Virus record (IMG/VR): IMGVR_UViG_3300012944_000029
Location: 1-53,777 of that record
DNA from: a virus
Lineage: Duplodnaviria; Caudoviricetes
Length of the DNA stretch: 53,777 nucleotides
Reading direction: 5' to 3' (one strand)
The stretch's first letter is position 1. Each line of letters opens with the position of its first letter. The notes under the pieces are model-generated. The model searched no databases. It was not told the DNA's origin and worked only from the letters and a program-made list of their open reading frames with translations. The position numbers and the translations under genes were made by a program. Positions 43,014 to 47,591 of the stretch are shown piece after piece.

Positions 43014-46000
43014 TCATTTTACCGTCCAATCGTCGCTAAGCCTCGCTCCTGTTGCTCCCATGATGGCAATCGTAGCCATTGCTTTTCTCATCTGTTTTAT
43101 CTGATCAGGACTCATCCCAAGCCCGTTTTTCCAAACTTCTCTAACGGCTTCCTCGGCAGGGATTGGTAACACTTGTTCAGACCAAAACTCTGGCCAGGTA
43201 TAACGCCCGATGCCTTCAGCTCCCAATCGCTTTGGCACGGCGCGATTTGAGTTTGGCAGAGGTCGATTCTGCCAGTCAGCTTTGAACCAGAGCGACGAAG
43301 CAAGGCTTGCAAAAGGGCTAAGCTGGCTGCGCGCGTACTCACCAAGGACTGTATAACTGCTTTCGTCGGGATGAACCAAGTTCTTCAATTTCCCGCCATC
43401 ACTGGTGCGAATTTGGTAAAGACGGACAGGTAACCGAGCCATCGTAAGCATCGCGTTTCCGTACGAAAGCTGCATGCCGGCAACCTTGAACTTCATGAAA
43501 TCGCCCTTCATGGGATCATCAAAATTGACGCTCTGTTTGCTGCCGATCGCTTGCAAAACGCCCTGATTCAGCGCCAACAAACCGAAAGCCGTTCCGGCGA
43601 CCCACGCCTTTTCCTTGATCTGATTCACCGCGAAATATTTCTCGGCTTGGGTGGCAGTTTTCCATTGCAAGAAAGTATTCGCTGCCCTCACGGGATCACC
43701 CGCCAGCCACATCACGCGAGAGGCTTCCAGGCGTGGGGCGAACAGTGCGACGTTCGTTCCTCGTGGCGCCGCGCCCTTCACAACTCCCGTCGCATGATTC
43801 ACTGCGTCAGCAATTCCTTTTGCCATTTCCGCTATCTGCGCCGTCTTCGGAAGTTGGTTCCATTGCTGGTCAAACATGTCCTGCCGTAAAATCTTCAGGA
43901 CTGAATAACCACGATTGCCCATCCCCGTCATATTGGCCAAGTACTTGACCGTGTCTGGGCTGTTGAAATCCTCGTACGTCATTGGGTCATTGACGAGGCC
44001 AGCGCGCCGTGCGGTGATATAATTCGGTCGTCGGATCAAATCCTGCACCTGCATTTCGTGATATGCTTTGCTGCCGACCATTCGATACATCTTCCCGAAG
44101 TCCGTGAAATAGGTTTTCCAAAAACGCGGCTGGAACGCGACCATCGGAGCGTGAGTTCCCAATGCTACCGTCCCGTGAAAGCCAACCTTCAGGCCGAACA
44201 TGATTCGAGGCACGGCTTGAATGGCCCGTAAATAGCCTGGAATGGCTGTTTGTTGAAGCCAGCGTTTTGCCTGATTGCGTAAATCCCGGACGGTCTGCTG
44301 CTTTCGGAACAAGTCGTCAGTCAGAAACTTGGCACGCTTGGTCTTGCCCAATGCGGCACGGACTTTATCGACTGATACGCCCAGATCGGTCGCCAGCTTG
44401 TTCACGATGTCATTAAAATCGTCCATCCCCGCGGCGATATACTCACGCGCCTTGGTCCATGCGTAGGAAGGCAAGTCCGCACGCGAGACACGAAGTTTTG
44501 TCGCAGCTTGGGCGGCTTTTATTGCCGCGTTCCGAACATCTCGATTTGCAATATCGGAAGCTTTCTTCGCCGCCCGAACTTCGGCCTGAGCGATCCTTTT
44601 TTCTTTTCCGGCTTGTGCCACACGCGCTTTATTCTCAGCCTCTGCTAACCTCGCAGCGGCGTCTCGGACGGTCTTGTTGGCTGCATCAAGAGCATCCCGG
44701 GCGGCTTTATCCTGAACATCTTCAGGCCGTGATTCAGCGGCCTTGATGCGCGCCTTGTTCTCGGCTTCTGCGAGGCGAATGGCGGCCTTCTGAACAGTCT
44801 CCTGCGCTGCCCGTTCTGCTTTGCGCGCGGCATCCTCCTGAATCTTTGCCGTGTCGCGCTCGCCCACGGTTTTGGCTACGCGAGTTTTAGCTTCGGCCTC
44901 TGCCAATCTAACGGCGGCCTCGCGGACAGTTTTATGAGCGGCGGCTAATGCGCGTTTCTCGGCAGCCGTGGAGATGCCGGATTCTTTATCCAAATGATCA
45001 AACAATTCCTGCTTGGCCGTCCCTGCCGCGCCCTCGGCCTGCTTCACCTTGCCAGCGGTCTTTGTCGCGGTGTCCGCCTGACTGGGCGTGAAATCCTTGC
45101 CCGTCTGATCTTTGAATGCCGAAGCAAGCCCGGTGAAGCTGCCTGTATCAATATCCTGTTCGCCTTGTTGTGCCATGCCGGTCTTGTGCCATTCGGTCTG
45201 CATCTCCTTGAGACGGTCCGCCCATGCTGAGCGAGCTTCAAATGCGGCCTTCCATTCCGGTGAATCGGTGCCGAACTGTTCTTCGGTGCGCCGAGCCTCA
45301 AGCGCCAATTGTCGGAGTTTGGCACGACCAGTCGCGATCCCCTCAGCGGAAACAGCCTTGGCCGGGTCTGCCTCAAAAGTCGCCATCGCTTTGTCGGCAG
45401 CGGCAGGATCGTTTTGTAAAATCGCCTCTCCCTCAATGACAGAGTCGGAAGCGGAAACCCCTTCACCAGTTGGAGACAGTCTTTCCTGGCCGGATGCTGC
45501 CGCTTGTTCGCGGACCCGCTGCGCTATACCAGTGGTGTCCGGGGTACCTTTAGTGGCCACCTCCCCGAGTTTTGCCGCGCCCATGCCGACCGGTTCGATG
45601 ATCGGTTGCGATGAGCCTTCTTCGATAATGGGTTTGGCTTCCGGGGCCGCAACAGCCGTAGCCTCAGGCGTCAATACGCCGCCTTCTTTTTGGATTTCTT
45701 CTTGGGTTTTTTCAGTTGGACTCACCTCCTTTACCGGATTTGGTGCCGCGCCTTGTGGGCTGCTAATGTCGAGCGGTGCATTGACGCTCCCGGATGGTGG
45801 CTCGCCTTGCGCTGCACGCTGTAGGCTATCGCCAGCGCTTGACTGCGCTTCTTGCCCGATGATAACTCCGCTTTGAGGTTCGACACGAAGGCCTGTTTCG
45901 ATGGGCTTTTGGATAGTGGCATTTTGATCAACTCCTTTCTCTTTAAGTGCTGCTGCTGTGCGTGGCGCGAGTGTCGCTTTGACGAGCCCGCCCGTGATAG

Positions 46001-46481
46001 CTGTCCCGGCAATGGCGCTCAGAATGTCACGTGTCGAAGTCTCCAGACTCGTTTCTGGAACGGACACTTCACCGGCCGCTTGCGCTACGCCTTTGACCGT
46101 CTGCGCCGCAAACCCTCCGGTGGCAATCTTGAACAGAGTCTGTGCCGCCATGCCGCCGACTTTGGCCGCAGCGCCCAATCCGAGCGTCGCGACGCCAATG
46201 GGATTCTCCACGCCTTCCAAGAGGCTGGCCGCAGCTTGGTTCGCCCCGGCCGCGACGGCAGCCGTGGTGGGAGACAGGCCGGCGGCTTCCATGTCCGAGC
46301 CCGTCACGGTGGGGACGCGCACAAAAGGCTTCGACAGCGCTTCGAGTGCCGCTTTGGCACCGGCTACGTTTGGGGAATCTACGGGAGGATCGTTGACACC
46401 AAAGCTCTCGACTGGAGGATCATTAAGGCCAAACGCGGCAACCTCGGGATCACTGACGCCAAATTCGGCTGTGGCTGGCAT
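43014..46481 (-). CDS. Large internal virion (ejection) protein
   Basis: 1155 aa, Ala-rich helical; last of three genes after the tail tubular genes. Confidence 0.7.
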   Translation of the reverse strand: MPATAEFGVSDPEVAAFGLNDPPVESFGVNDPPVDSPNVAGAKAALEALSKPFVRVPTVTGSDMEAAGLSPTTAAVAAGANQAAASLLEGVENPIGVATLGLGAAAKVGGMAAQTLFKIATGGFAAQTVKGVAQAAGEVSVPETSLETSTRDILSAIAGTAITGGLVKATLAPRTAAALKEKGVDQNATIQKPIETGLRVEPQSGVIIGQEAQSSAGDSLQRAAQGEPPSGSVNAPLDISSPQGAAPNPVKEVSPTEKTQEEIQKEGGVLTPEATAVAAPEAKPIIEEGSSQPIIEPVGMGAAKLGEVATKGTPDTTGIAQRVREQAAASGQERLSPTGEGVSASDSVIEGEAILQNDPAAADKAMATFEADPAKAVSAEGIATGRAKLRQLALEARRTEEQFGTDSPEWKAAFEARSAWADRLKEMQTEWHKTGMAQQGEQDIDTGSFTGLASAFKDQTGKDFTPSQADTATKTAGKVKQAEGAAGTAKQELFDHLDKESGISTAAEKRALAAAHKTVREAAVRLAEAEAKTRVAKTVGERDTAKIQEDAARKAERAAQETVQKAAIRLAEAENKARIKAAESRPEDVQDKAARDALDAANKTVRDAAARLAEAENKARVAQAGKEKRIAQAEVRAAKKASDIANRDVRNAAIKAAQAATKLRVSRADLPSYAWTKAREYIAAGMDDFNDIVNKLATDLGVSVDKVRAALGKTKRAKFLTDDLFRKQQTVRDLRNQAKRWLQQTAIPGYLRAIQAVPRIMFGLKVGFHGTVALGTHAPMVAFQPRFWKTYFTDFGKMYRMVGSKAYHEMQVQDLIRRPNYITARRAGLVNDPMTYEDFNSPDTVKYLANMTGMGNRGYSVLKILRQDMFDQQWNQLPKTAQIAEMAKGIADAVNHATGVVKGAAPRGTNVALFAPRLEASRVMWLAGDPVRAANTFLQWKTATQAEKYFAVNQIKEKAWVAGTAFGLLALNQGVLQAIGSKQSVNFDDPMKGDFMKFKVAGMQLSYGNAMLTMARLPVRLYQIRTSDGGKLKNLVHPDESSYTVLGEYARSQLSPFASLASSLWFKADWQNRPLPNSNRAVPKRLGAEGIGRYTWPEFWSEQVLPIPAEEAVREVWKNGLGMSPDQIKQMRKAMATIAIMGATGARLSDDWTVK
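45731..45922 (-). CDS. Nested out-of-frame gene: small basic phage protein (MPLxK...NI..E...GK..KQAVAIA type)
   Basis: AAAGGAG SD 9 nt before ATG 45922; MPLSKSPSKQAFVSNLKAELSSGKKRSQALAIAYSVQRKA. Confidence 0.75.
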   Translation of the reverse strand: MPLSKSPSKQAFVSNLKAELSSGKKRSQALAIAYSVQRKASHHPGASMHRSTLAAHKARHQIR

Positions 46482-46484
46482 GCG

Positions 46485-47591
46485 TCACGGCTTTCGCTTC
46501 AGCGTTCCGGTGGCCGGATTAATGTAAAGCGTGCCCGATGGCAGAGCATCATATTCGGCAGCCGTTGTTGGACGAGAGGTTCCAACCGGAGGCGCATGCA
46601 GGCCACTCTTGGGATTGGTCTGGTCTGGCACTGAGGCTGCCCCCGGAGTCGCAGTGGGCGAAGAGGCAGAAAGCGGTTTGGAAAGGTAAGAATATTTCCG
46701 CTGAACCCTGACCCTCTCTGCCGCGAACAGTCTGTTCTGTGTATCCATTTCTTCAGGACTTCGGGTCGTGGACAAATATGCCTTTTCCCGGATTTCAATT
46801 GATTGCAAATCCGCGCTCATTGCTTTCAGACCCATTCTTAACTCGCCTGACATGCCAGTCGGCCCGTTTACCAGGTATTTATTTATGTCGTTGGCATTTT
46901 TAAAGTCTGCAAGCTCCATCCGACCTTGTTGCTTTTGGGCTTCCAACCCAGAAGCGTTGTTAGCCCGCTCATCAATCGCGCCCAGCGTGTTTGCTCCCCG
47001 CTGCTGCCACACTTCCAAAAGCTGGGCTTGTTTGCGCTCTTCAAGCTGCAACCCCGCCGCGGCAATGTCAGATCCGTCAAAATATGTCTCTCCATTTGGG
47101 CGTTTTCTCTCGGGCACATCAACGCCTCCATGAGTCCGCAACCAATCCACCGCCACGAGGTTTTTCGTGTCCATTTCATCCTGGGCACGCGCAGCGCTAT
47201 TCTGCGCTGTCGTCTTTTTCATCAGCGCGACAAAATCCAGGCTCTTGGTAGAGCGCAACCCTTGCGGCGTCGTATCCAGGATGCTGCCCTCATCCCCTTG
47301 CGCCCACTTCGAAATGATCGGGGCGTCCCATGCGCGGTCATTCACATCCTGGGCGAGCACTTGGTTATGCAAACCTTCCGACTGAATTGTCGCAGCGTCC
47401 ATCCTGTTCTTAAGATCGAGCTGTTGCATCTGGAGCGGAAGCTTTTGCTGCTCCATGGCCAACTCCTGTTGACGCCCCATGCTCTGAGCCACCATAGAGC
47501 CAGCCGACAGGCCCTTGGTCCAGATGTCAGCAGGGCTCTCCTTGGGGTTGAGCCACGAGATGTTGGCAACGTTGGCGTCGTACCATGCCAT
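46485..47591 (-). CDS. Internal virion (ejection) protein
   Basis: Gln-rich helical; C-terminal EYDALPSGTLYINP motif. Confidence 0.7.
   Translation of the reverse strand: MAWYDANVANISWLNPKESPADIWTKGLSAGSMVAQSMGRQQELAMEQQKLPLQMQQLDLKNRMDAATIQSEGLHNQVLAQDVNDRAWDAPIISKWAQGDEGSILDTTPQGLRSTKSLDFVALMKKTTAQNSAARAQDEMDTKNLVAVDWLRTHGGVDVPERKRPNGETYFDGSDIAAAGLQLEERKQAQLLEVWQQRGANTLGAIDERANNASGLEAQKQQGRMELADFKNANDINKYLVNGPTGMSGELRMGLKAMSADLQSIEIREKAYLSTTRSPEEMDTQNRLFAAERVRVQRKYSYLSKPLSASSPTATPGAASVPDQTNPKSGLHAPPVGTSRPTTAAEYDALPSGTLYINPATGTLKRKP

Follow-up and report, generated by a model that had tools for sequence, protein, structure and literature searches.

The window analysed here is the complete 53,777-bp genome of a tailed phage with direct terminal repeats (IMG/VR record IMGVR_UViG_3300012944_000029; Duplodnaviria, Caudoviricetes). 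On its minus strand a large open reading frame (ORF) of 1155 codons (43014..46481) encloses, wholly and in the +1 frame, a second ORF of 63 codons (45731..45922), the product of which matches PHROG 2423, a widespread family of small basic phage proteins usually encoded by free-standing genes. The stretch 45731..45938, which adds a Shine-Dalgarno (SD)-like motif to the small ORF, is a complete and probably functional gene captured in a linker of the large protein, and would be one case of a dual-coding cassette that recurs among phages. In the scheme that we favour, a small PHROG 2423 gene would have been acquired, in this phage lineage, inside the disordered and hypervariable linker of the 1155-aa protein. 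Ribosomes on the large ORF would read the segment as about 64 linker residues, and independent internal initiation at AUG 45922, behind an unstructured A/G-rich leader with the SD-like AAAGGAG, would yield the small protein one base later. The same gene recurs out of frame, always at +1, in the linkers of large, mostly polyvalent phage proteins.

Position and Frame of the Nested Gene

The nested ORF runs on the minus strand from ATG 45922 to the stop codon TAA 45733..45731, and its product is referred to here as P0001. The distance between the two starts (46481-45922 = 559 = 3x186+1) places it in the +1 frame of the host ORF, on the same strand and completely nested. It consists of a conserved 40-codon core (45803..45922), predicted to form a two-helix hairpin, and a His/Arg-rich C-terminal extension of residues 41-63 (45731..45802) in place of the Lys-rich tail that is usual in the family. 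The motif AAAGGAG lies at 45938..45932 with a 9-nt spacer to the ATG. The first-pass annotation had described this motif, the start codon and a 63-aa ORF wholly inside 43014..46481 in the +1 frame, and its coordinates could be confirmed. The gene is present in a single copy in the window. Several other alternative-frame ORFs of 40-140 codons lie inside the host gene; since such ORFs are common there, the nested ORF would be unremarkable by itself, and it is the family match that exceeds chance.

Family Membership of the Nested Product

In a profile search the 63-aa product matched phrog_2423 with an E-value of 6.9e-15 (55.8 bits), residues 1-47 aligning with positions 1-47 of the 52 in the profile. 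Matches to the small protein were found by tblastn in 315 of 50,697 phage records, mostly PB1-like Pseudomonas phages together with Bcep1/BcepNY3 and SP6/K1-5-like phages, and pattern scans led to confirmed relatives in IMG/VR (231) and in metagenomes (92). The identity of P0001 to free-standing genes reaches 78%. In a 51-sequence alignment the window copy retains 7/7 invariant and 12/12 near-invariant residues (M1, P2, L3, S8, N15, E19, G23, K24, Q28, A31, I32, A33, Y34, S35, V36, Q37, R38, K39 and A40), an invariance that is overstated because the aligned members were retrieved using patterns from the window's own peptide. On a profile of 91 free-standing cores the window core scores 82.5 bits, at the 21st percentile of members (range 70.7-91.9). 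AlphaFold predicts a hairpin of two helices (residues 9-21 and 26-41) with a block-mean predicted local distance difference test (pLDDT) score of 86-94 over residues 1-40 and a poorly predicted tail, and the best structural matches of P0001 in BFVD are members of the family, with template modelling (TM) scores of 0.6-0.7.

Named members include Pseudomonas phage PB1 gp20, Escherichia phage K1-5 gp48 and Burkholderia phage Bcep1 gp02 / BcepNY3 gp01, which share with the window copy the N-terminal MPL start, the core motif and the helix hairpin; unlike these, the window copy is wholly nested and has no Lys-rich tail. The free-standing genes comprise 47-68 codons and are found in or near head or terminase modules. 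PB1 gp20 is placed between a MuF-like head-morphogenesis gene and the prohead protease gene, the copy of phage DSL-LC05 lies just upstream of a GroES-like gene followed by the portal gene, and in many IMG/VR contigs the portal gene follows directly after the family member. The description, in the first-pass annotation, of a widespread small basic protein with a free-standing gene near the head genes is borne out by the PHROG 2423 match and by the contexts in PB1 and DSL-LC05. The window copy departs from the usual setting (free-standing, next to a portal, MuF-like or protease gene, and with a Lys-rich tail), since it lies inside a large gene that ends a block of large unannotated genes and its tail is rich in His and Arg; this head-module context is typical of PHROG 2423, not defining. 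Taken together, these comparisons support the nested product as a true member of a family that is normally encoded free-standing in the head-morphogenesis region.

Searches beyond PHROG were less productive. Pfam gave nothing above the cut-off for the small protein (best DUF3198, E 0.053) and no family at E below 0.02 for the 51 aligned members, and a profile search of the PDB with the small protein returned only a chance-level match to eL39 (E 0.3). A protein atlas suggested a cluster with DUF6496 in 10% of its members, a lead only, and DUF6496 was mentioned in none of the papers searched.

The family also occurs in arrangements other than the free-standing one. In K1-5 the final 23 nt of the tailspike gene gp47 are shared with gp48 (49 aa; L173, 2501-2650), a partial overlap in a cultured phage. 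In seven loci (L008, L013, L022, L148, L151, L152 and L156) the module forms, in frame, the N-terminal domain of proteins of 160-989 aa; the fusion in L022 (3001-5967) shows a weak match to ART-PolyVal (E 0.0035, below the cut-off), that in L151 carries DUF6321, and BFVD has module fusions under the names prohead serine protease and Nudix-domain protein. In the short metagenome contig L131 (41-175) the host-type frame opens one codon before the ATG of the small gene and continues open for 349 codons past it, which may be another form of overlap.

Recurrence of the Nesting in Giant Phage Proteins

Among 160 fetched loci with 104 distinct small-ORF sequences, 7 carry the small gene wholly inside a same-strand ORF of 626-1953 codons within the locus, always in the +1 frame; these correspond to 5 distinct sequences (L012, L094, L015, L018 and L111). 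The full-length host ORFs of this first giant family comprise 3016-3493 codons. The giants carry the polyvalent-protein domains LPD23 and ART-PolyVal and are mutually 34-47% identical in their conserved parts, and outside the module itself no homology to the host protein of the window was found. A second giant family, resembling P0034, harbours an intact nested gene of 45 codons in the +1 frame in 6 of the 7 loci that cover the position, the exception being L212; here the host ORFs comprise 2527-3498 codons. In addition to the window, the nesting was thus verified in DNA at 13 loci in two host-protein families, and the invariant Met1-Pro2 start coincides with an ATG in the window as well as in all 11 other distinct nested copies.

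The arrangement was also sought through its host-frame reading. A profile of the module in the host frame (six sequences, 42 columns), scored against 1.84 billion representative proteins, detected 26 proteins at E<=0.001, with lengths of 126-3662 aa and 20 of them longer than 1000 aa. Nearly all of the module readings start with N-A-(P/T), the host-frame image of ATG-CC. When synonymous codons were chosen freely for each of the 26, the highest family score that the +1 frame could reach, an upper bound and not a DNA reading, was 95-135 bits, so that all 26 could hold a nested member of the family. The median of the family members themselves is 121 and their minimum 83; controls gave -39+-19 (maximum 23.6) for 531 windows from elsewhere in these proteins and -26+-14 (maximum 19.2) for 130 shuffles. 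The N- or C-terminal domains of the first giants are present in only some of the 26; one of the proteins carries LPD38 and another (P0031, residues 1163-1220) sigma-70 region 2 (E 8e-7).

The search for further relatives of individual cases was limited in yield: around the module of the L015 giant only L015 itself was recovered, P0017 was not found in IMG/VR, and tblastn of the L018 host-frame peptide against the phage records gave no match, although the low-complexity filter may have masked the query. A cultured phage with the nested arrangement was not identified. The idea that the nesting arose from a synteny of the type "MuF - small gene", with giant N-termini that are MuF-like, was unsupported, as none of three N-terminal segments of the giants (0/3) matched a PHROG.

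Selection on the Nested Frame

The host-type frame is free of stop codons in the window copy and in all nested copies. Free-standing copies contain on average 2.27 stops in this frame within the 40-codon core, and it is stop-free over the core in only 8 of 99 of them and open over the whole small ORF in 2 of 88.

Substitution patterns identify the nested frame as the one that governs the sequence evolution of the module in the giants. Between L012 and L094, 8 of the 9 differences in the nested ORF fall on the nested third codon position, and in the next 217 nt 4 of 5 fall on the host third position (Fisher p=0.023 between the regions). The first codon position of the host frame is the wobble position of the nested frame. 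In 8 disjoint nearest protein pairs, 56 of 88 host-frame replacements within the module need only a first-position change, as opposed to 741 of 2597 outside the module (odds ratio 4.4, p=3.6e-11). Likewise, the module differences among the six P0034-like loci are distributed 63.5/25.4/11.1% over host codon positions 1/2/3, whereas 1110 conserved control columns of the same loci give 27.6/19.4/53.0%. The nested protein is 82-93% identical among these loci and the host-frame reading of the same DNA 51-71%; the giants themselves are 45-58% identical to P0034, apart from one at 93%. Since the nested protein is better kept than its hosts, the nested gene has been conserved through deep divergence of the host proteins and dominates the evolution of the shared DNA.

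The earlier proposal that both frames are kept functional is therefore upheld by the substitution patterns of other phages with the same nesting, and would extend to the window by analogy only.

Capture Into a Variable Linker

Twelve homologues of the large protein were collected (L003, L004, P0003-P0011 and L250; 792-1799 aa, 36-56% identical overall). Those that include the N-terminal part cross the region equivalent to the linker as one ORF, which supports the host ORF as one gene and not two joined. The nested segment sits between the conserved N-terminal and the conserved central and C-terminal parts of the protein, in a stretch of about residues 165-300 (45582..45989, minus strand) that is unalignable and of variable length among the homologues and is predicted to be coil. 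The first-pass annotation had called the host frame a low-complexity linker at this place, which agrees with the homologue alignment and with a coil prediction for residues 161-315. In the model of the host protein (mean pLDDT 56) all of residues 1-324 are below a pLDDT of 50, so that the model does not discriminate and is merely consistent with disorder.

As the homologues run as single ORFs and have no counterpart of the segment, lineage-specific capture accounts for the arrangement and a joining error does not; with 12 of 12 lacking it, the parsimonious view for the window is that the segment was inserted into a linker already present. The capture that had been proposed at first thus fits both the 12 homologues and two complete relative genomes that have no copy of the gene. 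A de novo overprinted gene could be ruled out, in view of hundreds of free-standing homologues of the nested protein and of host-protein homologues without the segment; the nested gene originated by capture or engulfment and was not born de novo.

The linker also serves as a cargo slot in this protein family, since in L003, P0003/P0004, P0008 and L250 a different folded-looking insert is found at the same place, and in this respect the host-protein family resembles polyvalent proteins on a smaller scale.

Function of the Window Copy and Competing Explanations

In the window itself, both frames of the 40-codon core look coding, with codon-usage scores on the genome's own table of +0.167 (nested) and +0.152 (host), compared with +0.29+-0.13 for in-frame windows and means of -0.43 to -0.50 (sd about 0.2) for off-frame windows of this genome. 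The differences between the window copy and free-standing copies are distributed 0.30/0.20/0.49 over nested codon positions 1/2/3, and those among free-standing copies 0.26/0.18/0.56. The RNA around the start is unusually unstructured, with a minimum free energy (MFE) of -5.3 kcal/mol versus -9.9+-2.4 for shuffles, 199 of 200 of which are at least as stable; the same calculation gave no difference from shuffles for four of the nested copies in giants. By analogy with the copies in the giants, we consider function of the window copy likely, and we infer that the nested ORF is expressed.

A number of observations weigh against this. The last 23 nested codons score -0.37 in the nested frame, which is non-coding-like, and the Lys-rich tail usual in the family is missing; the C-terminal extension probably represents read-through into linker-shaped sequence, which would have replaced the Lys-rich tail and an early stop. 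The wobble bias of the window copy (0.49 versus 0.56) is about 1 sd weaker than that of free-standing copies. No sigma-70-like promoter was found in 45500..46600. AAGGAG occurs at 21 sites on both strands of the genome, only 3 of which precede an ORF of at least 40 codons, and almost none of the 31 long ORFs has a canonical SD. Because the genes of this genome are largely SD-less and the motif is unspecific, the SD-like element is weak evidence here: the description of AAAGGAG as one of the strongest SDs in the genome was literally true, but it says little about initiation. The segment was detected in neither frame in any of the 12 host-protein homologues (tblastn E above 0.1; best 1.2 bits in a profile scan of the nine proteins P0003-P0011), and the two complete (100%) relative genomes G001 and G002 contain no copy of the small gene anywhere, so that the lineage can dispense with the gene. 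The nearest copy to the window segment is 70% identical in DNA. The search for a closer relative with the segment yielded two relatives from IMG/VR, neither with the segment; nothing above 78% identity in a metagenome scan with the small protein; nine host-protein homologues, at best 66% identical and none with the segment, among 5.8 billion proteins; and one host-protein locus without the segment in a scan of genome collections.

The same variability is seen in the first giant family, where L175 and L176 have the nested gene and L177 and L178 do not, even though the flanking DNA of the N-terminal domain is about 96-97% identical; about 570 bp with the nested gene in L175 (7267-7835) are replaced in L177 and L178 by about 150 bp of unrelated sequence. 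The gene is likewise not present in L180 or in the complete genome G007 of this family. Presence and absence among near-identical giants point to an accessory cassette in a mosaic region, so that a recent and still neutral insertion is possible for the window copy. Independently of this question, the comparison of L175 with L177 and L178 marks the linker of the giants as a hot spot of mosaic recombination.

The rival explanation that survives best, which we nevertheless consider unlikely, builds on these points: the segment would be a recombination scar, a foreign piece of the structure SD-gene-SD recently put into a tolerant linker, in which only the host frame matters and the nested ORF has not yet decayed. 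Its absence from the 12 homologues and the two complete relatives, the insertion slot with unrelated inserts in other homologues, the non-coding-like C-terminal 23 codons and the differing presence among near-identical giants would all be expected, as would AAAGGAG on either side of the nested gene, the pattern of a donor operon with SDs, given that the phage's own genes are mostly without an SD. However, the branch that leads to the window copy is long (0.58 changes per site, with the nearest copy at 70%), and yet the copy keeps every invariant residue and a score within the family range; where it differs from relatives, the nested frame still shows a wobble bias. Had the insert contained two or more host-frame stops, as is usual, it would have been lethal, so that the segment was probably adapted to dual coding beforehand, and nested copies are under purifying selection wherever relatives permit the test.

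Translation of the small domain by a +1 shift of large-ORF ribosomes near 45923, giving a truncated protein that ends in this domain and no independent gene, is very improbable. An upstream SD-like element could in principle stimulate shifting, as in prfB, but the ATG falls exactly on the family's Met1-Pro2 start in the window and in the 11 other distinct nested copies, those in giants have no SD-like element at all, and inspection, without a formal scan, revealed no slippery heptamer, host-frame stop or rare-codon pause site.

Finally, an artefact, be it a chance similarity in an alternative frame, for which the many alternative-frame ORFs of the host gene might speak, or two genes joined by a sequencing error into the 1155-codon ORF, as the first-pass annotation had itself envisaged, is refuted by the family match (E 6.9e-15, up to 78% identity to free-standing genes), by homologues of 792-1799 aa that span both sides of the linker in one ORF, and by identical nesting in 13 other loci.

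Origin of the Nested Copies

In a tree built from 97 distinct 120-nt cores, the label "nested" requires 4 changes, whereas shuffled labels need 5.9 on average (2 of 500 as low), and the nearest neighbour of the window copy, on its long terminal branch, is the nested copy L015. When all six nested rows were forced into one clade, the tree was 5.2 log-likelihood (lnL) units better than the free search, with a p-value in the approximately unbiased test (p-AU) of 0.59; the tree is largely unresolved, with 43 of 94 forks open. A single origin of the nested copies is compatible with this tree and not rejected, and shared codon constraints could give the same result. Most donor copies would bring host-frame stops with them; the segment that came in was therefore probably pre-adapted to dual coding and may have come from another nested context.

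More speculatively, and with more doubt than confidence on our part, the nested copies could form a dual-coding sub-lineage of PHROG 2423: a cassette of about 130-190 bp, with synonymous sites tuned for an open -1-shifted frame, that recombines among low-complexity linkers of large proteins, capsid-internal or polyvalent and unrelated to one another, and is kept because its product works with them, for example in prohead loading. The module is also a neighbour or an in-frame fusion partner of MuF-like, protease and polyvalent proteins. If this were true, the window would hold the first example from outside the giants.

Comparison With Known Embedded and Overprinted Genes

The closest familiar arrangement is that of the spanin genes Rz and Rz1 of phage lambda and its relatives, in which Rz1 is wholly embedded in the +1 frame of Rz. 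As there, a complete small gene lies in a larger gene on the same strand at +1; Rz1 is made by internal initiation and both products are used. The products of Rz and Rz1 work as a pair, whereas in the present case the nested gene is the older and widespread one, the host reading is a linker, and a functional pairing of the two products is not implied. Rz1 is not known to form a free-standing and widely conserved family that was captured from elsewhere.

Overprinted genes of small viruses, such as B, K and E of phiX174, are described as two proteins on one DNA under asymmetric selection (PMC8227390; PMC3494269), and as in those genes, codon-position patterns reveal the dominant frame of the nested copies. 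Overprinting denotes a de novo protein in an old gene; in the present case free-standing homologues of the nested protein number in the hundreds, and the linker of the host is the novel reading. The usual order is thus reversed, an old and widespread gene being carried intact with the linker as the newcomer.

In polyvalent phage proteins, cargo has been described as in-frame domains (Iyer et al., 2017; PMC5512222), and the text of that paper contains none of the words "overlapping," "linker" and "low-complexity." The giants with nested copies are polyvalent proteins in the sense of that work. The host protein of the window resembles polyvalent proteins in having a variable cargo slot between conserved parts and differs from them in that its 1155 aa contain no polyvalent-protein Pfam domain. 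In-frame fusions of the module are read in their own frame as part of a larger protein, and the module of the window is out of frame and would be separately initiated. A literature search, which did not cover supplements, found no account of a PHROG 2423-type family or of genes nested in polyvalent proteins. A pre-existing gene carried out of frame inside linkers adds a further form to the embedded genes known so far.

The same arrangement is found in at least three families of host proteins and in 26 protein clusters. One consequence is that a conserved phage protein will be overlooked in these genomes by gene-calling programs that do not allow one gene inside another. Whole genes can also find a safe harbour in the disordered linkers of giant phage proteins. 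Moreover, the recurrent link to capsid-internal cargo proteins provides a first functional handle on a family that is still annotated as hypothetical in PB1-like, SP6-like and Bcep-like phages.

Other Features of the Host Gene and Its Surroundings

The host ORF (43014..46481) is the last in a minus-strand block of large genes and encodes a mostly helical protein. Its earlier label as an ejection protein found no backing in Pfam, PHROG or fold comparisons, and fits in size, helical content and gene position only. Indeed, neither the host protein nor the 5 homologues examined matched a Pfam or PHROG family, the host protein had no match in the 50,697 phage records, and Foldseek against the PDB returned nothing below E 2.4. 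Among the neighbours, none of 8 minus-strand genes (0/8) matched a PHROG family, only Erf and an exonuclease on the other strand did, and Pfam recognised a metallophosphoesterase only.

The second AAAGGAG (45726..45732, minus strand), which overlaps the nested stop codon and extends to AAAGGAGGTGA, has no ORF of at least 40 codons downstream; it may be what is left of the ribosome-binding site of the next gene in the donor. In the giants (L012, L015, L018 and L184, L187-L191) the leaders of the nested copies are G-poor and A/C-rich, lack an SD-like motif and contain about 0-2 G in 20 nt, which could be a shared feature of initiation or simply reflect the codons of Thr/Pro/Gln/Asn-rich linkers. 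As for the host of the phage, the single locus from the genome collections lies in a metagenome-assembled genome (MAG) labelled Candidatus Acidiferrales, the only relative of the large protein there, which gives a weak hint at the bacterium in which this phage propagates.

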